In this document: in pieces, positions 33,700 to 41,539 of the stretch
How positions within the stretch are numbered: the stretch's first letter is position 1
Layout of the letters: the number at the start of each line of letters is the position of its first letter
IMG/VR virus record: IMGVR_UViG_3300046171_000225
Coordinates: 32,001 to 96,000 of that record
Length of the DNA: 64,000 nt
Direction: 5' to 3' (one strand)
Source of the DNA: a virus
The notes under the pieces: generated by a model
Databases searched by the model: none
What the model saw: the letters and a program-made list of their open reading frames with translations, nothing else
What the model was told of the DNA's origin: nothing
Position numbers and translations under genes: made by a program

Positions 33700-34179
33700 G
33701 TGAACGCGCCTAAGATTTCTTTTGACTACGATAACACACTTATTAGATATGAGTACTTATACAATGAAGCTGGGTACGCTGTAGACGCAGTTTACACTGA
33801 GCCTCATCATGAAAATATTAAAATCATGAGGGACTTGTATGATCAGGGCTGTGAAATTTATATCACTACAGCCAGGATAAGAGGTGTCAGACTACCCGAA
33901 CATGATAACTCTCCTGCACCAGAAGAGTTAGTGTTTCAATTGAAACTACCAGTAAGAAAAGTGTTCTATACTTCAAATAGAAGTAAAGTTGGCACATTAG
34001 AGAAAAATAAAATACATATTCACTTTGACGATTGTGTTCATCAATGCAAAGAACTAGCTAAAAAGTGGACGGAAGAAGGAATAGGTGCTATACCTGTTTT
34101 AGTTGATGCCCCTGAGGGTATCAATGAATTTTTAAAAGAGAAGTTTAAGAAGCTTCTAGATGACTACGCATCTGCATAA
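33700..34179 (+). CDS. HAD-superfamily hydrolase
   Basis: FDYDNTL, ITTAR, K and HFDD motifs. Confidence 0.7.
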   Translation: MNAPKISFDYDNTLIRYEYLYNEAGYAVDAVYTEPHHENIKIMRDLYDQGCEIYITTARIRGVRLPEHDNSPAPEELVFQLKLPVRKVFYTSNRSKVGTLEKNKIHIHFDDCVHQCKELAKKWTEEGIGAIPVLVDAPEGINEFLKEKFKKLLDDYASA

Positions 34180-34189
34180 GGAGGTAAAT

Positions 34190-34582
34190 ATGTCAGATAT
34201 GGTTGGAGTTGGGAGACTAATCCGCTCAGAGGATGGCGGTTTTGATATTATGTTGACCCGAGATTTCTATGAGGCTTTTGTAGGCTCGGAAGACCACCAA
34301 GAGGACGGAGCAATCACGGCATCTATGTTGGCTCCTTTTCTTTCTGCGGCGCTTGAGGAGATTGGTTTGGGCGGTGATCAAGCACTTCTAGATCTGTTTG
34401 TTGGAATTTGTCTCGAAGACGAGCAGCTACATGCAGAGATGGCCCCTAGCCGGTTTGAAGAGATCCTTACATATTCTCTTCAGTCTGTTAGAGGCGACCC
34501 GACGCTTACTGTTCCGGAAGGCTCAGGAGGATCAATTGTTGATTGTTTAGCTTATCAAGGATTCTTTAAATTGATTGGCTAA
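34190..34582 (+). CDS. Hypothetical protein
   Basis: ATG after AGGAGGT; acidic. Confidence 0.55.
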   Translation: MSDMVGVGRLIRSEDGGFDIMLTRDFYEAFVGSEDHQEDGAITASMLAPFLSAALEEIGLGGDQALLDLFVGICLEDEQLHAEMAPSRFEEILTYSLQSVRGDPTLTVPEGSGGSIVDCLAYQGFFKLIG

Positions 34583-34588
34583 CGAACG

Positions 34589-34613
34589 AAGCCCCGGTTC
34601 TGCCGGGGCTTTT
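34589..34613 (+). terminator. Intrinsic terminator
   Basis: AAGCCCCGG/CCGGGGCTT stem followed by a T run. Confidence 0.8.
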
Positions 34614-34629
34614 AACTTTTGAGGATATA

Positions 34630-34875
34630 ATGACACACAAACATGTAGATATTTATGACATGCCAAAAGAGGCTGTTGACCATCCTGACCATTATGGCGG
34701 GAGAGAAAATACATATGAAGCTATCAAAATTATTGAAGCATATGACCTAAATTTTTCTCTTGGAAATGTAATTAAGTATGTCTTGCGAGCAGGTAAGAAG
34801 AGCTTTAATACCACTGAAGATCTGAAAAAAGCAAAGTGGTATATTGAGAGACATATAAACAACTTGGAGAAATAA
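34630..34875 (+). CDS. DUF3310-family protein
   Basis: VDHPDHY, GNVIKYVLRAGKK and EDLKKAKWY. Confidence 0.85.
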   Translation: MTHKHVDIYDMPKEAVDHPDHYGGRENTYEAIKIIEAYDLNFSLGNVIKYVLRAGKKSFNTTEDLKKAKWYIERHINNLEK

Positions 34876-34876
34876 A

Positions 34877-35539
34877 ATGAAATTTGACAGAGTTATATTG
34901 GATTATGGCCATGGTGGTATGATCGATGGCAAATACCAGACTGCAGGTAAGCAGTATCACTTCACTGAGCCAGAAGAATTTTCTTTCTACGAGGGTGTTT
35001 TTAATAGAGGAGTAGCAAGCAAGCTTATGACTATGCTCCTGAAGCAGGGTATCGAAGTCTATGATCCAGTTGAAGGCTGCTATATTACCGAGGACCGTAC
35101 TTGGGAAGAGCTAGAACAATCCGATGTTCCTCTGTCTACTAGAGTGTCACGAGCAAATAAAGAAAATAAGAGAGGCAAAACTTTGTTCCTCTCTGTTCAT
35201 GCAAATGCTATTGGTCGTTCTAACACCGGACCTTCTCAGAAAGCTCGTGGAGCATCAGTTTTTGTCTACCGCAACAGTGGTGACGTTGGTACAATTGCTT
35301 CTAACCTTATGACTCAGTATAAGGCTACTGAGTTGCGCCCACGCAAGATTGTGGAGAACCAATCTTTTTATGTTCTTCGAAAAACTTCTATGCCTTCATT
35401 GTTGACAGAGAACGGCTTTTACGTTAATATCGATGACGCCAAGTACCTCGCTACTGAAGAAGGGCAGTGGGAGGTTGCAAGGGCTCACTTTAATAGTATT
35501 TATGAATTCCTCGATATTGGGGAGCCGAACCTAGCATAA
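34877..35539 (+). CDS. N-acetylmuramoyl-L-alanine amidase (Amidase_3), candidate endolysin
   Basis: LDYGHGG, E, SVHANA, YVLR and LTENGF motifs. Confidence 0.88.
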   Translation: MKFDRVILDYGHGGMIDGKYQTAGKQYHFTEPEEFSFYEGVFNRGVASKLMTMLLKQGIEVYDPVEGCYITEDRTWEELEQSDVPLSTRVSRANKENKRGKTLFLSVHANAIGRSNTGPSQKARGASVFVYRNSGDVGTIASNLMTQYKATELRPRKIVENQSFYVLRKTSMPSLLTENGFYVNIDDAKYLATEEGQWEVARAHFNSIYEFLDIGEPNLA

Positions 35540-35553
35540 CAGAAGAGGATAAG

Positions 35554-36276
35554 ATGAACAGGAGCATTGAGCTTTATGGAGATGGAATTGGTAGAGTTGA
35601 TCTGGTGGAGTGGATGGGCAACGATCTTACTATCGTTAACAGTGCTCGCGTCAGTTTTGGAAAGCATAAGGAAGAACTAGATGCAAAAGATAAAAGACTT
35701 ATCAACTATCTGGTCAAGCATAGGCACACTTCTACGTTTGAGCATAATGTTGCTACCTTTCGGTTTGTTGTCCCCCTCTACGTTCGTTCTCAGCATCATC
35801 GTCATCGTACTTGGTCTTATAACGAAATCTCTCGTCGCTATACTGACGTAAACATCAAGTTCTACGAGCCACAAGGGTTCAGAACGCAGCACGAGTCTAA
35901 CCGACAAGCCAGCAACGCTGACGAGTTGATCGACCCAGAAATCATTAGTGGACAAGACCCCTACAACCATGGTGCTCCTTACTTTCACCCTGTCAGTAAA
36001 GTTATCAGAATGCATCACGCAGATTCTCTTGGGCTCTTCAACAGACTTATCGAAGCAGGCGTTTGCCGAGAGCAAGCCCGTGGTGTCCTGCCGCAGAACC
36101 TTTATACAGAGTATTACGGAACTGTAAACCTTTCTAACCTTATGAAGTTCATTGACCTTCGCACACACGAAGGGGCACAATGGGAGATAGTAAAAGTTGC
36201 TGAAGCCTGCCTAGAAATCGCTGAGGGGCTGTGGCCTGTTGCGGTTGGTGCTTATCGGAGAGCGAAGAATGATTGA
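35554..36276 (+). CDS. thyX: Flavin-dependent thymidylate synthase
   Basis: HTSTFEH, RHRTWSYNEISRRY, EQARGVLP and AQWEI motifs. Confidence 0.93.
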   Translation: MNRSIELYGDGIGRVDLVEWMGNDLTIVNSARVSFGKHKEELDAKDKRLINYLVKHRHTSTFEHNVATFRFVVPLYVRSQHHRHRTWSYNEISRRYTDVNIKFYEPQGFRTQHESNRQASNADELIDPEIISGQDPYNHGAPYFHPVSKVIRMHHADSLGLFNRLIEAGVCREQARGVLPQNLYTEYYGTVNLSNLMKFIDLRTHEGAQWEIVKVAEACLEIAEGLWPVAVGAYRRAKND

Positions 36277-36370
36277 GGTAGTTGTTACATCCTTTAGTTT
36301 TGGGTTTTTTGCTGGCTGGTATTTTTTTCGGGACGCCAAGTGCTGCCTGCATAGGGAGAGCGAAGAATGA
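36269..36370 (+). CDS. 33-aa hydrophobic cassette peptide (MIEVVVTSFSFGFFAGWYFFRDAKCCLHRESEE)
   Basis: Starts in repeat 1 and stops in repeat 2; missed by the ORF track. Confidence 0.6.
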   Translation: MIEVVVTSFSFGFFAGWYFFRDAKCCLHRESEE

Positions 36371-36591
36371 TTGAGTGGAAAGAAACTAATGGTGACTTTA
36401 CTGCTGTGTGCTCTTATGATACACTCACAGAATCTTACACTGTTGAAGTCACACATACAGACGGCAGGCAAGATAGTGTAACTTGGGTTCGGATGGGCTA
36501 TGAGCCCAGATTTGGAATGGATGATCAGGACGCTCAAAGATCAATCCGTGAATCTGAAAGGATTTGTGTTAGAATGGAGAGCGAAGAATGA
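36367..36591 (+). CDS. Cassette hypothetical protein
   Basis: Bounded by repeats; ends ESEE. Confidence 0.7.
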   Translation: MIEWKETNGDFTAVCSYDTLTESYTVEVTHTDGRQDSVTWVRMGYEPRFGMDDQDAQRSIRESERICVRMESEE

Positions 36592-36785
36592 AATTGCTTC
36601 GTAAGATTTTAATTCGTTCGGGAATCTGGGGCTACTTCTACCCGCCATATGATTTCGTTGGCGTCAAGGTTCATAGAGACTGGCCTTGGAAGAAAAAGCC
36701 TCTAACAGCCGATGAGATCGTGTCAGTACAGCCTATGACAGCGCCGTCAGCATTTGTCTTTTATTACGAGGAGAGCGAAGAATGA
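36588..36785 (+). CDS. Cassette protein carrying a capsid-like VSVQPM motif
   Basis: ADEIVSVQPMTAPSAFVFY versus capsid ANDLVSVQPMSLPSGLIFF; ends ESEE. Confidence 0.7.
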   Translation: MKLLRKILIRSGIWGYFYPPYDFVGVKVHRDWPWKKKPLTADEIVSVQPMTAPSAFVFYYEESEE

Positions 36786-37147
36786 AAATTGAAGGACCGA
36801 TTTGGATCGAATCCAGACCAAATGAAGGCTCCCTTGTTGGAACTACACTTTACAATCAGTTTATTTCTTTTAATAACAAAGAGATGGACTATGAATGCCC
36901 GCATCACATGGCAGAAGTTATGAATGCCTTGCTAACACCCCAAGATGTAGATATGATAGGAGACAGAGATCCAAGTTCTCTTTTCGCCACCATCGGCTAT
37001 ATTCCGTGGAGTTCGATGCCTGATTATCTACAAGAACCCTTAGCAAATTTAAATGTGTCTGGACAAGACACAATTGTTGCTAGGCGACATTGGGTTCTTA
37101 AAGGTGACGAACTTTTCCCTGTTGTTGTGGGGGAGAACGAAGAATGA
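36782..37147 (+). CDS. Cassette hypothetical protein
   Basis: Bounded by repeats; ends ENEE. Confidence 0.7.
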   Translation: MKIEGPIWIESRPNEGSLVGTTLYNQFISFNNKEMDYECPHHMAEVMNALLTPQDVDMIGDRDPSSLFATIGYIPWSSMPDYLQEPLANLNVSGQDTIVARRHWVLKGDELFPVVVGENEE

Positions 37148-37419
37148 AGATGACAACACAGATCGCAGAAAAGATTATTCAAGATGTGCGGACAGACGTT
37201 GAGACAATTTCTGATTTCTGTCACTACAACAAGATGGATGAAGAGATTACATTCATGGAGAACGCCACAGTGATTTTCAAAAAGCACGTCGATCTTACCG
37301 AAGAAGAAGAGATGGCAATCCGAGTGGCTATATCCATCGGCTATACTAAACTTTCGGATGACATTTCCATTTTGCAAGAACAGCTTAATGATCTAGAAGC
37401 CCAGATGCCTTGCTATTAA
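37144..37419 (+). CDS. Cassette hypothetical protein
   Basis: Starts in repeat 5 and stops 3 nt before repeat 6. Confidence 0.7.
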   Translation: MKMTTQIAEKIIQDVRTDVETISDFCHYNKMDEEITFMENATVIFKKHVDLTEEEEMAIRVAISIGYTKLSDDISILQEQLNDLEAQMPCY

Positions 37420-37434
37420 AAAGGAGAGCGAAGA

Positions 37435-37848
37435 ATGAGTAAATTTAAAGTTCACGATCTAGTCTATCTTAACCTTCCTGCGGCTGATCAAGGAGATCAC
37501 GTTGATGGTTTTATTGCTGATGTTATAGAACCGGGAAAATATTTGGTCTGGTGGTTTGGAAAATGTAAATACTGGGTGGAAACTGATCAATTTCTTGAAC
37601 CAAAAGAGCCTAATCGTAAATTCAAAAAGGGCGATTATCTTACACGAGGCGGGCCTCTGACACAACGCCCCGATGGCACATGGCCTGAGCTTGGGCAAGT
37701 TGTGTATGCTTATCCACAGGGATGGTACTTGGTTCGTATTATTACAGTAAACGAGGGCAAATACCTTTGGTGGTATAGGCACGCAAGACCTGACTCGGGA
37801 AGATACTGGACATTACACGAAAAAAAGAAAGAGGAGAGCGAAGAATGA
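37435..37848 (+). CDS. Cassette protein with two KOW/SH3-like units
   Basis: KFKVHDLV... and KFKKGDYL...; ends ESEE. Confidence 0.65.
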   Translation: MSKFKVHDLVYLNLPAADQGDHVDGFIADVIEPGKYLVWWFGKCKYWVETDQFLEPKEPNRKFKKGDYLTRGGPLTQRPDGTWPELGQVVYAYPQGWYLVRIITVNEGKYLWWYRHARPDSGRYWTLHEKKKEESEE

Positions 37849-38015
37849 AAATCGGTGATAAGGTGCAGTATACTGAATATGGTATAGAGGGGGCGAAAGG
37901 CGTGATTGTCAGGAAGGCTTTCTATGTTCGTTATGAACTGCCCACTGGTAGGATCGTAGAAAGTTTTGCTCTCCCAGAGCATTTAAAACCTTTAGATAAG
38001 GAAACTAAAGAATGA
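37845..38015 (+). CDS. 56-aa KOW/SH3-like cassette protein (MKIGDKVQY...ETKE)
   Basis: Starts in repeat 7 and stops in degenerate repeat 8; missed by the ORF track. Confidence 0.65.
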   Translation: MKIGDKVQYTEYGIEGAKGVIVRKAFYVRYELPTGRIVESFALPEHLKPLDKETKE

Positions 38016-38239
38016 AAGTCGGTGATAGGGTTCGTGACTGCCTTTTCCATCTTGATGATGAATTTCATAGAGGGATAGGAACTGTCACTGAAGTCCATCC
38101 GATTGATAGAGCACCTAAAGGGTTCTATTATGTTGTCATAAGATGGGACGATAAGATCCCAGATGGTAACCCATTTGCCGTAACGGAATATACAAGCGAA
38201 GATTATTTTGATGATGTTGAACTTGTGGAGAATGAATAA
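38012..38239 (+). CDS. KOW/SH3-like small protein
   Basis: MKVGDRV...GIGTVTEV...VIRWD. Confidence 0.6.
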   Translation: MKVGDRVRDCLFHLDDEFHRGIGTVTEVHPIDRAPKGFYYVVIRWDDKIPDGNPFAVTEYTSEDYFDDVELVENE

Positions 38240-38442
38240 TGTGGGAACTTTGGCAGTGGGACGGCCACTATATCAAGGGCAAGAAAATAAAGAGATTTAA
38301 ATCAAAGCAAGCAGTCTTTGAGTACGCAGAAAAGAACATTGAGTATGACAAGATTGCAGAGGGCCGCCCCAGAGAATGGTATCTTGAAAACAAGATTGGC
38401 CTCGCAGTTGGAATGATTATTGATAATAGGAAGGACAAATGA
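38239..38442 (+). CDS. Hypothetical protein
   Basis: TAATG-coupled ORF. Confidence 0.55.
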   Translation: MWELWQWDGHYIKGKKIKRFKSKQAVFEYAEKNIEYDKIAEGRPREWYLENKIGLAVGMIIDNRKDK

Positions 38443-38645
38443 GAAACAAAATGTTGAAAGCAGTTATTATGGAGCTGGAAGCAAAGGAAGCTAAGGCACA
38501 AGCAACAATTGAACTTTATCTTGATAAGGCTGTTGCTATTGCTGACCACAGCGAGATTCTTGACGAGATTGCTAAGTGGGCTAACTATGGTGCGGAAGCC
38601 CGAGACGCAAAAGAGTATTTGTTGTCGGAGTTTTCAGACAAATGA
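38439..38645 (+). CDS. Small helical phage protein
   Basis: IELYLDKAVAIADHSEILDEI. Confidence 0.55.
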   Translation: MRNKMLKAVIMELEAKEAKAQATIELYLDKAVAIADHSEILDEIAKWANYGAEARDAKEYLLSEFSDK

Positions 38646-38666
38646 GATAAATAAACTATTTACTGT

Positions 38667-39917
38667 ATGCTAAACGGCATCAGTATACAATCACAGATAA
38701 GTCTTTTTATTTCTGCCCTCATTATGGCTCTCTTCTTTACGATGGAAGTGTTGGTTGTATTTGAGATCATCGCTGCAACTTATCACATCTCAGTGCTTGG
38801 TCTCTTTTGCCTTATGGCTTTTATGCCTCCGTGTGCTGTTGTTATTTCAGAGTTCCTTGAAAACATGCGACGAAAAGAGGAACTGGTCAACTCGCAGCTC
38901 GAAGGTATCAATAGTTCAAACTTAGTTGTGACCTTGACTATGGACGGCCATATACTAAAGGCCAACCCTAACTTTTGTGAACTTATGGGCTGTGACGAAG
39001 GCTATGTTATTATGCAGCCTCACAGAAAGATGGTCACTCCTGAATACTCTGAGAGTGACGAGTATGCTCACTTCTGGGCAAACTTACGAAAAGGCCGCAG
39101 CATCACAGGCAAGTTTGAAAGGGTTGCGAAGGATGGCTCGAAGCGATGGCTCTACGGCAACTATACTCCGATTAAGAATAAGTTTGGTACTTACGATAGG
39201 GTCTTGAAGATCGCAACTGACGTAACAACCGCACATTTAGTGGAGGAGATAGTTAGCCAAAAGACAGCGTATTTGGAACACGCTGCGAAGATCCTGCGTC
39301 ACGACATGCACTCTGGTATTAATACCTACCTTCCACGGGGCATCTCGTCTCTGAAACGCCGTCTGGACGACGAAACAATAAAAGAAAAGCGTCTTCAAAT
39401 GCCTATGAAACTTATTGAAGACGGACTTGTCCACACTCAGAAAGTTTATAAGGGCGTCTATGAGTTTACTAACTTGGTAAGGGAAGATACCACTCTTAGT
39501 AAAGAGGAACACAACATCAGAGAGATACTGGATGAGTATCTTCAATCTACTTCCTATGCAGACCAAGTTATCCTGTGCCCTGATCTTCCAACACTTCTTG
39601 TAAATGAAGCTCTGTTCTGTACTGCCGTAGATAATATGATTAGAAACGGCCTGAAATACAACGACTCTAAAACCAAGTATGTAAAAGTAATGATGGTTGA
39701 TGACGACACACTGGGCATCATAGACAACGGACGAGGGATGTCTCAGGAAGAATACCAGAGACTAAGCAAGCCTTACTTCCGGAGAGAGGGACAAAAAGAA
39801 GAAGGCACTGGCTTGGGTCTGAACATTACAGTTGCGATTTGTAAAGAACACGGCTTTGAACTCTCTGCTGAGAAGCGAGAAGAAGGCGGAACCATAATGA
39901 GGATAAAAGTAAAATGA
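38667..39917 (+). CDS. Membrane PAS-domain sensor histidine kinase
   Basis: Two TM helices, PAS (ILKANPNF...FWANLRKG...KDGSKRWLYGNYTPI), H-box LRHD, N-box DNMIRNGLKY, DNGRG and GTGLGL. Confidence 0.92.
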   Translation: MLNGISIQSQISLFISALIMALFFTMEVLVVFEIIAATYHISVLGLFCLMAFMPPCAVVISEFLENMRRKEELVNSQLEGINSSNLVVTLTMDGHILKANPNFCELMGCDEGYVIMQPHRKMVTPEYSESDEYAHFWANLRKGRSITGKFERVAKDGSKRWLYGNYTPIKNKFGTYDRVLKIATDVTTAHLVEEIVSQKTAYLEHAAKILRHDMHSGINTYLPRGISSLKRRLDDETIKEKRLQMPMKLIEDGLVHTQKVYKGVYEFTNLVREDTTLSKEEHNIREILDEYLQSTSYADQVILCPDLPTLLVNEALFCTAVDNMIRNGLKYNDSKTKYVKVMMVDDDTLGIIDNGRGMSQEEYQRLSKPYFRREGQKEEGTGLGLNITVAICKEHGFELSAEKREEGGTIMRIKVK

Positions 39918-41539
39918 AACTCCTACTTGAAAGATGGCGTCAATATGTAAACGAAGAACTTTTGAACGAACTCTCTCTCGAAGATGTTGAGAAAAGATTT
40001 GATTCAAAGAAGTTTTCAAAGGCTGTTAAGCGTTACGAAGTTTCCCCTGACTATGCAAAAGAACAGCTACTTGCTCGTATACCTAAAGACATTACCGAAA
40101 AAGATAAGGCTGGGGCACTTAACTGGCTGATCAGCCTTTTTGTAAAAGATCCTAAACAAGTGTTTGTTGATCCGGAAGGAAGGCCCATATCTCGCTCAAA
40201 AGTAACTGGTGATCTTGAACTTTTCTTCCAAATTAAGAAGCAAAATCTAGCTAGATTTCTTGACAAAAGAAGTTTGTCTAGAATGGAGTCTGTTTCCGAG
40301 TTAGGTAAAGTCGTAGATGCTGCTAGAGAGCCTTATAAAAAGCATATGGAAAAAAAGGATTACTTAGACGCTGAACAAGGCAAACTAAAAATCTTTGAAA
40401 ATGACGAATATAAAGTTTTCATTCCAACCAATAAAGGGGCAGCTTGCGAACTAGGTAAAGGGACGGAATGGTGTACTGCTGCGCCGGGACTGCATTATTA
40501 TGAACATTATCACAAAGAAGACGATCCTTTAATTATTTTTAAAAGCAAGACTGATTCTAAAAAAGATGTACAAGTGCATTTTGGAAGTCATCAATTCATG
40601 GATGTAAACGATGAAGATATCGGACAAGAACGCGCTGTTCGTCTTGCTAGTTTGTTGAAGGGTAATAAATACTTACCAAAAAAGGTCTTAAATATCATAG
40701 ATGAGATAGAATATATCTCTCTGGGTGATGGTAAGGAAATAATTGTTGATTTTACGGGCCATAAGCTCTGGTATCTAAACGGCAAATTTCACCGTGAAGA
40801 CGGTCCTGCTCTTGAGTCGCCTGAAGGTTATAAAGAATGGTACCTAAACGGCAAACAACACCGTGTGGGGGGTCCTGCCGTTGAAGACCCCGATGGCGCT
40901 GAAGCATGGTATCTAAACGGCAAACTCCACCGTGAAGATGGTCCTGCCAAAACAACCCGAGTCGGCATACAGGAATGGTGGCTGAGGGGCCAACGCCACC
41001 GTGTAGACGGCCCTGCTATTGTCGTACCAGGGGTTTCAGAAGCGTGGTACCTAAACGGCCTTCTTCATCGTGAAGACGGCCCTGCTCTGTCCAATGCCAC
41101 AGAAAAAAAGTGGTACTTAAAAAACTTTCTTCACCGTGTAGACGGCCCTGCCATTGAGAGAGCCGATGGCAGAAAGGAATGGCACCTGAGGGGCAAACTT
41201 TACCATAGGGAGCAGGCTGACGGCACAAAGAAGTGGTATCAGGACAGAGCTCTTCATCGCGAAGACGGCCCCGCTATTATATATCCAGATGGCTCAAAGG
41301 AATGGCATTTAAACGGCCAACAACACCGTGAAGATGGTCCTGCCATTGAGATGGCCAACGGCACAAAGATCTGGTACCTAAACGGCCTTCTTCATCGTGA
41401 AGACGGCCCTGCCATTGAGAGGCCCGACGGCGTCGGACCTATGGCAGACGGCTCAAAGGAATGGTTCCTAGATGGCAAACGCTATACCAAAGAACAGTAC
41501 GAAGAAGAAATGAAATCTAGAAAAGGAGAAGAAGGATGA
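39914..41539 (+). CDS. PcfJ-like domain plus about 10 'WYLNGxxHREDGPA' repeats
   Basis: AACELGKGTEWCT motif; tandem units of about 23 aa; ATGA-coupled on both sides. Confidence 0.7.
   Translation: MKLLLERWRQYVNEELLNELSLEDVEKRFDSKKFSKAVKRYEVSPDYAKEQLLARIPKDITEKDKAGALNWLISLFVKDPKQVFVDPEGRPISRSKVTGDLELFFQIKKQNLARFLDKRSLSRMESVSELGKVVDAAREPYKKHMEKKDYLDAEQGKLKIFENDEYKVFIPTNKGAACELGKGTEWCTAAPGLHYYEHYHKEDDPLIIFKSKTDSKKDVQVHFGSHQFMDVNDEDIGQERAVRLASLLKGNKYLPKKVLNIIDEIEYISLGDGKEIIVDFTGHKLWYLNGKFHREDGPALESPEGYKEWYLNGKQHRVGGPAVEDPDGAEAWYLNGKLHREDGPAKTTRVGIQEWWLRGQRHRVDGPAIVVPGVSEAWYLNGLLHREDGPALSNATEKKWYLKNFLHRVDGPAIERADGRKEWHLRGKLYHREQADGTKKWYQDRALHREDGPAIIYPDGSKEWHLNGQQHREDGPAIEMANGTKIWYLNGLLHREDGPAIERPDGVGPMADGSKEWFLDGKRYTKEQYEEEMKSRKGEEG
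40769..41480 (+). repeat. Tandem coding repeats of about 69 bp
   Basis: Recurring TGGTAYCTAAACGGC...CAYCGTGAAGAYGGYCCTGC. Confidence 0.9.

Follow-up and report, generated by a model that had tools for sequence, protein, structure and literature searches.

A 16-nt translational-coupling junction as a probable crossover point for small accessory genes behind thyX in uncultured marine phages

Are the joints of mosaic phage genomes placed at conserved "linker" sequences, or are genes joined at random and the working combinations kept by selection? This old question is raised anew by a 64,000-nt stretch of viral DNA, bases 32001-96000 of the 163,026-bp IMG/VR virus record IMGVR_UViG_3300046171_000225 (hereafter the window; the genome is 90%-complete), in which a 16-nt element, GGAGAGCGAAGAATGA, recurs at the starts of a row of small genes behind thyX. 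An earlier note, made from the sequence of the window alone, had proposed that recombination between any two copies of this element would delete, insert or shuffle whole genes, as in an integron-like array without attC sites. Here, we followed the 16-mer through the genome, related phages and public assemblies. We consider it likely that the 16-mer is a translational-coupling junction whose copies act as short-homology crossover points, shuffling small accessory genes after thyX. The 16-mer, its 16-nt extent, its conservation at the nucleotide level, the shuffled arrays and the breakpoints inside the 16-mer, including those of near-isogenic insertions and deletions (indels), are direct observations.

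Six exact copies of the 16-mer lie on the plus strand at 36257, 36355, 36576, 36770, 37423 and 37833, and a seventh, at 37132, has a single mismatch, G6A, and reads GGAGAACGAAGAATGA. Two decayed copies, at 38000 and 38227, carry 4 mismatches each and stand in register at gene junctions; 4-mismatch matches alone are not significant, with 25 genome-wide on the plus strand, and the site homologous to 38227 in a relative, L330, is a 1-mismatch copy. At three or fewer mismatches, the seven copies, packed into 1.6 kb of array, compare with 1.12 expected, and seven were reached in 0 of 100 shuffles. The earlier note had listed these nine positions correctly and had found the exact 16-mer nowhere else in the window; its absence extends to both strands of the rest of the 163,026-bp genome, where no further copy occurs at this threshold. 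The same note's gradient of conservation, from highest at thyX to lowest distally, is only roughly right: copies 1-4 are exact, copy 5 has one mismatch, copies 6 and 7 are exact again, and copies 8 and 9 are decayed.

In each copy, a Shine-Dalgarno (SD) sequence, GGAG, is followed by a purine-rich spacer of 8 nt and by the ATG of the gene behind it, with which the TGA of the preceding gene overlaps. The copies mark off eight units of 98, 221, 194, 362, 291, 410, 167 and 227 bp, and one open reading frame (ORF) per unit starts at the 16-mer ATG, giving proteins of 33, 74, 65, 121, 91, 137, 56 and 75 amino acids (aa), with C-terminal tails along the array of ESEE, ESEE, ESEE, ENEE, ESEE, ETKE and ENE. 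The spacings, the single small ORF per unit and the tails had all been described before and were recovered from the ORFs. So was the observation that copy 1 is read in a second frame inside the end of thyX (YRRAKND-stop) and that copy 6 is non-coding, from which conservation at the nucleic-acid level had been proposed. A count by frame over 143 distinct copies from the window phage and its relatives agrees with this proposal: 104 encode ESEE-stop, with the TGA of the upstream ORF overlapping the ATG, the RAKN frame is used by 27, no ORF lies upstream of 11, and the remaining copy fuses two ORFs. The logo of 180 distinct contexts shows 1.1-1.9 bits at all 16 positions and <0.4 bits at every tabulated outside position, the informative part being these sharp edges, as the set was selected by match to the motif. 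It shows neither conserved flanks nor a palindrome around the 16-mer, and third-codon positions are as invariant as the others. Because the 16-mer occurs in three frame contexts and its third-codon positions are fixed, the constraint, as read from these alignments, acts on nucleic acid and not on a protein tail. The ESEE tail as a selected protein feature is ruled out, the same 16 nt being found in another frame and in a non-coding context, with codon choice fixed.

A simpler explanation, which the earlier note had allowed for, is that the 16-mer is a common genome-wide context of ribosome-binding sites (RBS). This is excluded by the genome scan described above and by the ordinary gene starts of the phage: of 160 crude starts, 54 have GGAG upstream, nearly always with a spacer of 4-11 nt, and 70 have an ATGA overlap. 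Ordinary starts thus have loose GGAG..ATG(A) contexts, and the 16-mer is not a general RBS context. It does share with ordinary ATGA stop/start coupling an SD inside the upstream ORF and a TGA that overlaps the ATG (104 of the 143 copies), but ordinary junctions are not mutually identical, whereas here 16 nt are identical across unrelated genes and phages. A literature search for the 16-mer found no paper that contains it; a search on linker sequences turned up work on promoter-early stem-loop cassettes (PeSLs) as its only relevant result.

An exact-match scan of IMG/VR returned 113 stretches with the 16-mer, about 45 of which have at least two copies at two or fewer mismatches, 90-800 bp apart, the largest arrays having eight. 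When bacterial and archaeal genomes were scanned in the same way, the 80 stretches listed of at least 120 were isolated single matches in unrelated taxa, as chance predicts. The order of core genes in 44 loci is RecA - g28904 - DnaB - ribonucleotide reductase (RNR) - g34630 - (amidase) - thyX - [array] - g42558 - g42876 - g43745 - DnaE. The interval after thyX is hyperplastic, ranging from a single junction in L060 and L016 to ~6 kb in the window, and in these two "empty" sites one 16-mer copy joins thyX directly to the homologue of g42558. The array-bearing phages are a clade of uncultured marine myovirus-like phages.

Comparison of these relatives supports the proposal that recombination between copies deletes, inserts or shuffles genes: the arrays differ in cassette number, content and order, with breakpoints inside the 16-mer. 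The 278 ORFs started at the 16-mer in 65 loci fall into 91 families, arranged in 47 distinct arrays with 101 different adjacencies; at least two different downstream neighbour families were seen for 23 of 59 families and at least two different upstream ones for 21 of 65, and four family pairs occur in both orders. For each cassette of the window, a different contig gives the best nucleotide match, and the 16-mer delimits these matches. Window positions 36355-36592 are 98.3% identical to L036, L050 and L105, 36575-36790 are 88% identical to L073, 36769-37147 are 81-87% identical to L008, L035, L029 and L067, 37131-37347 are 91-93% identical to L073 and L057, and 37832-38003 are 87% identical to L009 and L077; thyX is only 73-78% identical to those same contigs. 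For cassette 2, the 238 nt shared with L050 (4 differences) start at the first base of the left copy, end at base 16 of the right one and lie between unrelated flanks, in two phages whose core proteins, where compared, are 59-82% identical at the amino-acid level. More generally, high-scoring segment pairs of at least 95% identity between loci have 27 of 36 starts and 18 of 27 ends within 2 nt of a 16-mer edge, where only 0.26% of positions lie. When one 60-nt flank of an inter-locus copy pair is at least 90% identical and the other unrelated (376 pairs), identity on the unrelated side stops 0-2 nt past the 16-mer in 360. Homologues of the cassettes elsewhere, which the earlier note had proposed to check, are flanked by the same element: a motif-blind retrieval by protein with three cassettes gave 12 homologue loci, and all 12 have the 16-mer (two or fewer mismatches) at one or both ends. 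Two of these 12 homologues stand directly after thyX, unlike their position in the window.

A near-isogenic comparison comes from Logan contigs of four DNA runs from different studies, which we aligned to 34500-40500. The earlier note had suggested that junctions skipping cassettes be looked for, and natural variants of this kind exist. Record 3 of run X13 (1106 nt) matches 36160-36575 and then 37423-37843 with 0 mismatches in each part, so that at the joint 36575->37423 it skips 847 nt, or three cassettes, with 16 letters that fit both sides. Exchange between copies 3 and 6 would be expected to yield just this sequence. This record and one X6 contig join 37843 to 38238, in the same register of copies 7 and 9, after which identity is ~86%; another Logan contig places 37132 behind 38241, in a different cassette order. 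Contigs of X2 begin and end exactly at 16-mer edges (36257-36591 and 37423-37847), and loose contig ends at 36257, 36591 and 37421 run on into other sequence and therefore mark alternative neighbours. The 33-mer that spans the copy 3/6 joint occurs in two JGI metagenome contigs and was not found in IMG/VR. Two relatives extend the picture. In L331, thyX (83.5% identity) is followed by an extra 69-aa cassette not in the window, then by 36257-36591 at 99.4% and 37416-37847 at 99.3%, and then by sequence at 82.9%; L330 gives 99.1%, 99.5% and then 84.6%. A block bounded by the 16-mer is thus common at >99% to backbones that are ~16% different. Altogether, the window differs from the variants by three cassettes at one internal junction, two at another and one at the thyX-proximal junction. 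Growth of the array from the thyX end, also part of the earlier proposal, is unsupported, with indels both at the thyX-proximal junction (L331) and internally (copies 3/6).

Since all comparative data come from metagenome or virome assemblies, the shuffling could be an artefact in which different phages were joined at the repeat during assembly. Common assemblers use k of 21 or more, and Logan contigs are indexed by 31-letter words. The repeat has 16 bp and is shorter than either; therefore a word across each junction must exist in the reads, and chimeras are not tenable. Moreover, the same joined form was found in one Logan and two JGI contigs, and cassette orders recur in several independent samples (e.g., L036, L050 and L105). 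We regard this explanation as extremely improbable.

How might the shuffling work? Exchange between two copies in one genome would delete the genes between them, and exchange between co-infecting relatives would insert, replace or reorder whole genes. A crossover anywhere in the 16-mer would regenerate the ribosome site, stop and start, and any cassette would fit behind any other, because the 16-mer itself supplies the SD, spacer, start and overlapping stop. The crossovers would probably depend on general functions (phage RecA, annealing, or slippage during replication where repeats are direct) and not on a dedicated enzyme. Direct repeats of such length are known to undergo deletion through slippage or annealing and, in recombination-active phages, homologous exchange at low frequency. 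For T4, the authors of the PeSL work cite homology patches of <50 bp (PMC2839356, PMC4122927).

Several points weigh against crossover at short homology as the explanation. Only recombination products were observed, and neither an intermediate of recombination nor a circle came to light; the junction predicted for a circle or tandem arrangement (the end of cassette 5, the 16-mer and the start of cassette 3) gave no match in IMG/VR, although assemblies are unlikely to contain such a junction and its absence is not evidence against circles. Given minimal homology lengths, 16 bp is short for RecA-type exchange. The comparison loci from IMG/VR were chosen because they contain the exact 16-mer, and the copy pairs are not independent events, many loci re-sampling the same phages. 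Not all variation respects the repeat: in cassette 5, homology to L073 and L057 runs only to 37347 and falls short of copy 6 by ~75 nt, and the kinase and repeat-protein genes downstream vary without the 16-mer. Selection for working junctions could alone place surviving breakpoints at gene boundaries. Finally, the core proteins of these phages are only 56-88% identical, and recombination alone offers no obvious explanation for 16 nt that have stayed the same among them; an added function, such as an RNA-binding or processing site, may conserve these 16 nt.

This last point leads to a different view, in which the 16-mer serves chiefly in control at the RNA level, as a translational operator or processing site of an accessory-gene regulon; this function would keep the sequence the same, and recombination would be a by-product. 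In the strong form of the view, recombinants arise at random and selection among them sets the breakpoints. T4 provides models in the operators of RegA and the GGAG cleavage sites of RegB. An SD and a start codon do lie inside the 16-mer, an ORF starts at the ATG of all seven window copies, and 243 ORFs of at least 15 aa start at the ATG of copies with three or fewer mismatches across loci. The sharp 16-nt extent is the size of a protein-RNA site, and conservation in three frame contexts is a nucleic-acid constraint that recombination alone would not necessarily give. The start-associated sequences (SAS) of mycobacteriophages likewise have an SD core, a single orientation, non-structural genes only and an occasional upstream stop (PMC3203893). 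On the other hand, related near-complete genomes have no 16-mer and homologues of cassettes in L273 and L262 work without it; the group as a whole therefore has no conserved regulatory requirement for the 16-mer. A candidate RNA-binding factor did not emerge, and an Rfam scan of 34000-40000 at E<=1 returned no family. The strong form, in particular, fails to explain joins with 16 shared letters between otherwise identical flanks, or the 360 of 376 switches that lie within 2 nt of the 16-mer. We therefore judge control at the RNA level to be unlikely as the main role, but a translational role may coexist with a role in recombination, and the SAS-like alternative of the earlier note may in the same way coexist with shuffling.

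Position 6 of the 16-mer bears on the same choice. It is G in 8 of 8 copies of L308 (=L073) and in 6 of 7 in the window, and A in 11 of 12 copies of L295, 5 of 5 of L242 and 3 of 3 of L281. The two alleles are near-uniform per genome, with L295, L242, L281, L290 and L266 on one side and the window, L073, L012 and L050 on the other, and the G/A difference turns ESEE into ENEE tails. On the thyX tree the G and A alleles are clustered and array-less lineages are interspersed, but the tree is poorly resolved (24 of 46 inner branches open), and gains and losses of arrays are not datable from it. Alleles that are common to a genome fit an exchange that needs matching copies and equally fit co-evolution with a trans-acting factor, as the RNA-control view would have it. 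Gene exchange may run in separate groups of phages, one marked by each allele; a comparison of cassette identities between allele types gives only a hint, confounded by repeat sampling of the same phages.

A bolder form of the crossover reading takes these alleles further. The 16-mer would be a self-propagating recombination adaptor, born from the thyX 3' end, copied with every capture and kept identical as only matching copies recombine, with the G and A alleles as separate exchange groups and perhaps an unrecognised phage enzyme to serve it. We hold this to be distinctly unlikely; if true, it would amount to integrase-independent cassette capture with built-in translational plug-and-play.

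An enzyme is central to a further alternative, in which a site-specific recombinase or nuclease that has escaped recognition, from a new homing-like or integron-like family, targets the 16-mer and actively captures and excises cassettes. The exact conservation, sharp edges and single orientation of the 16-mer would suit such a target, as would the "empty" single sites between thyX and the next core gene, the allele common to copies within a genome, and one GIY-YIG and one HNH gene of unassigned role in the genome. Those two genes lie far from the array, outside the window, and are of kinds that are common as free-standing phage genes. The absence of an integrase and the presence of RecA, which the earlier note had stated for the window, hold for the whole genome: neither a tyrosine recombinase (PF00589, Phage_integrase) nor a serine recombinase (Resolvase), nor RecT, is matched in the 90%-complete 163-kb sequence. 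There are no inverted repeats or attC-like structures at the junctions, and no gene was found to co-occur with the arrays, although no systematic test was made. A dedicated site-specific enzyme thus seems to us very unlikely.

The same features define the relation to integrons, which consist of IntI, attI and attC, the attC sites being imperfect palindromes of ~60-140 bp at cassette ends. Co-oriented, promoterless cassettes behind a fixed anchor, in variable number and order and with "empty" sites, are found in both. However, the phage lacks IntI or any other tyrosine recombinase in the searches just described and has no attC palindromes, conservation being limited to 16 nt and the junctions lacking local inverted repeats; the repeat, of 16 nt, is part of coding sequence, and indels are not confined to the anchor-proximal site. 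Membership of the array among integrons is ruled out by the missing IntI and attC. Of the integron-like array of the earlier note, the functional analogy stands and the class assignment, its defining features missing, does not.

A closer counterpart is found in the PeSLs of T4-type phages, an example of linker-mediated modular shuffling (Arbiol et al. 2010, PMC2839356; Comeau et al. 2014, PMC4122927). In PeSLs as here, short conserved repeats flank ORFans in a hyperplastic region between conserved core genes, relatives differ by indels and replacements with crossovers inside the repeat, and there is no dedicated integrase. The PeSL authors themselves liken the arrangement to integrons and to the linker sequences of Susskind and Botstein, and in PeSLs a regulatory function and a recombination role coexist (PMC2839356, PMC4122927). 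The two systems differ in what the linker is. A PeSL is a sigma-70-like promoter plus a terminator stem-loop, with its own transcription for each cassette, whereas the 16-mer is a translational junction in an apparently co-transcribed chain and overlaps coding sequence on both sides. The 16-mer contains no -35/-10 hexamers, and none of the 26 promoter-like matches, a number close to that in shuffles (18.3, standard deviation 4.1), fell in a junction repeat; the junctions show no terminator-like sites, inverted repeats or conserved flanks. PeSL membership of the 16-mer is ruled out by the missing promoter and stem-loop. Further, the window phage has a non-T4-type replication module (DnaE, DnaB and RecA), and excised mini-circles have been shown for PeSLs. 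By analogy, then, the array is functionally a case of linker-mediated modular shuffling as in PeSLs, a process foreseen by the modular theory of phage evolution. What sets it apart from PeSLs is a linker that is a 16-nt translational-coupling junction within coding sequence, in a non-T4 replication background, in a large uncultured marine clade and with near-isogenic indel variants.

The 16-mer can also be compared with the SAS of Cluster K mycobacteriophages, with consensus GGGATAGGAGCCC (Pope et al. 2011, PMC3203893). Both are short, asymmetric, conserved motifs with an SD core at the starts of unrelated non-structural genes, in one orientation and sometimes with an upstream stop. SAS are absent from the host genome and are suspected of a translational role, as yet unproven; about half of the sites have 17-bp inverted repeats (ESAS), and no recombination role is reported (PMC3203893). 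But SAS stand 3-7 bp before the start without including the start codon, whereas the 16-mer includes the ATG, and SAS are dispersed over the right half of the genome, whereas the 16-mer forms tight gap-free arrays; the sequence and the host group differ too.

Where did the 16-mer come from? The thyX genes of many relatives likewise end with it. Among relatives picked by their ThyX protein that have enough downstream sequence, 25 of 56 carry the 16-mer at three or fewer mismatches, and the other 31 have neither the 16-mer nor any other repeated 12-mer junction. Four array-less relatives of 157-183 kb have no copy anywhere, and in a fifth, array-bearing relative genome 5 of 6 copies are in the thyX array. 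The thyX 3' ends of array-less relatives are diverged homologues of the 16-mer (e.g., GAAAGGCAAAGAATGA in L254), and this suggests that the 16-mer began as C-terminal codons of thyX plus an ATGA junction. From this junction between the thyX 3' end and the downstream gene it would have spread as cassettes were added. Cassette homologues in L273 and L262, as said, stand without it. Further arrays with the same 16-mer were seen elsewhere in the replication module (L015:1-128, L018:170-965 and L108:2678-3206), between RecA and g28904 (L033/L089/L097) and, in some relatives, upstream of RecA; members of one cassette family (F1) were found in thyX arrays as well as in an array upstream of RecA.

These properties matter for the question posed at the outset. 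In these phages a minimal linker of 16 bp and known sequence comes with hundreds of natural junctions, with indel variants that are near-isogenic and with a pair of natural alleles, and the linker hypothesis is therefore directly testable in them. A translational junction, and not only a promoter/terminator module, can serve as an adaptor, with a captured gene expressed without signals of its own. Marine phages trade a pool of at least 91 families of small genes of unknown function, and it is in pools of this kind that functions in host takeover and anti-defence usually reside. Seamless assembly of cassettes ready for expression could also be modelled on the adaptor.

Gene by gene, the array reads as follows, all on the plus strand. 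It is anchored by thyX (flavin-dependent thymidylate synthase, 35554-36276; Pfam Thy1, E=4.7e-46), within which copy 1 (exact, 36257-36272) marks the left end of a block that is >99% identical in L330 and L331. Cassette 1 (36269-36370) is a 33-aa hydrophobic mini-ORF with the tail ESEE and the homologues L010_6700 and L085_10446, and it ends in copy 2 (exact, 36355-36370). Cassette 2 (36367-36591, 74 aa), 98.3% identical at the nucleotide level to L036, L050 and L105, has different genes on both sides there. Copy 3 (exact, 36576-36591) is the left crossover point of the 847-bp indel. The three-cassette block that follows (36592-37422; 65, 121 and 91 aa, with copies 4 and 5) is absent in X13 record 3, L330 and L331. 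It comprises cassette 3 (36588-36785, 65 aa, 88% nucleotide identity to L073), copy 4 (exact, 36770-36785), cassette 4 (36782-37147, 121 aa, tail ENEE), whose homologues stand at other array positions, among them directly after thyX in L319, copy 5 (37132-37147, one mismatch, G6A, GGAGAACGAAGAATGA) and cassette 5 (37144-37419, 91 aa), whose TAA stop precedes copy 6. Copy 6 (exact, 37423-37438), non-coding upstream, is the right crossover point of the indel. Cassette 6 (37435-37848, 137 aa) ends in copy 7 (exact, 37833-37848), across which identity in the variants falls from 99-100% to 83-86%. Cassette 7 (37845-38015, 56 aa) is absent in the X6 and X13 variants, L330 and L331 and ends in copy 8 (decayed, 4 mismatches, 38000-38015). 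The start of cassette 8 (38012-38239, 75 aa) resembles that of the cassette after the homologue of cassette 2 in L050; copy 9 (decayed, 4 mismatches, 38227-38242), whose L330 counterpart is the 1-mismatch copy, leads into the first gene after the array (38239-38442, 67 aa).

The eight cassette proteins have no Pfam match above the curated cut-off, and the seven scanned against PHROGs matched no family; on these searches, they are ORFans. Over 23 residues, cassette 3 aligns without gaps to residues 86-108 of the major head protein of the same phage (6548-8377; 48% identity, pairwise E=8e-7), and the same stretch gives a weak Pfam Gp23 match; it could be a stand-alone copy of a capsid segment. 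Cassettes 7 and 8 have in common only their first eight residues, MK[IV]GD[KR]V[QR], and the DNA behind their junction copies is 82% alike over 33 nt, and a cassette in L050 has a similar beginning; cassettes 7 and 8 may be diverged members of one small-protein family.

The major head protein of the phage matches a PHROG major-head family, and Pfam matches include a tail sheath, RecA, a DnaB-type helicase, a class II RNR and an Amidase_3 lysin, as well as ThyX, a PAS-domain histidine kinase and a DnaE-type polymerase. A blastn search against GenBank phages gave no DNA match, and the best protein match of DnaE is at ~32% identity, to Bacillus phages. Public runs that contain the stretch are seawater and marine viral metagenomes.

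Other parts of the neighbourhood also vary. At thyX 35940-36051, a contig in each of the four runs swaps ~112 nt for 106 other letters (joint 35939->36052), and in IMG/VR relatives the thyX match is split at the same internal segment; thyX therefore has a hypervariable internal segment. The RNR match in L280, L282 and L283 falls into two pieces ~2 kb apart (~1609 and 3821 in L280), which suggests an inserted element such as an intein, an intron or a homing gene. Downstream of the array, in the variable region, a membrane sensor histidine kinase (PAS + HATPase_c, 38667-39917), with no response regulator seen nearby, is 92% identical at the nucleotide level in L330. It is followed by a 541-aa protein (39914-41539) with many near-identical WYLNGK.HREDGPA repeats. 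In L330 (3654-4137), a 483-nt segment replaces this protein except for the first ~14 and last ~5 codons, with no involvement of the 16-mer; the difference may be a change in repeat number or a replacement.

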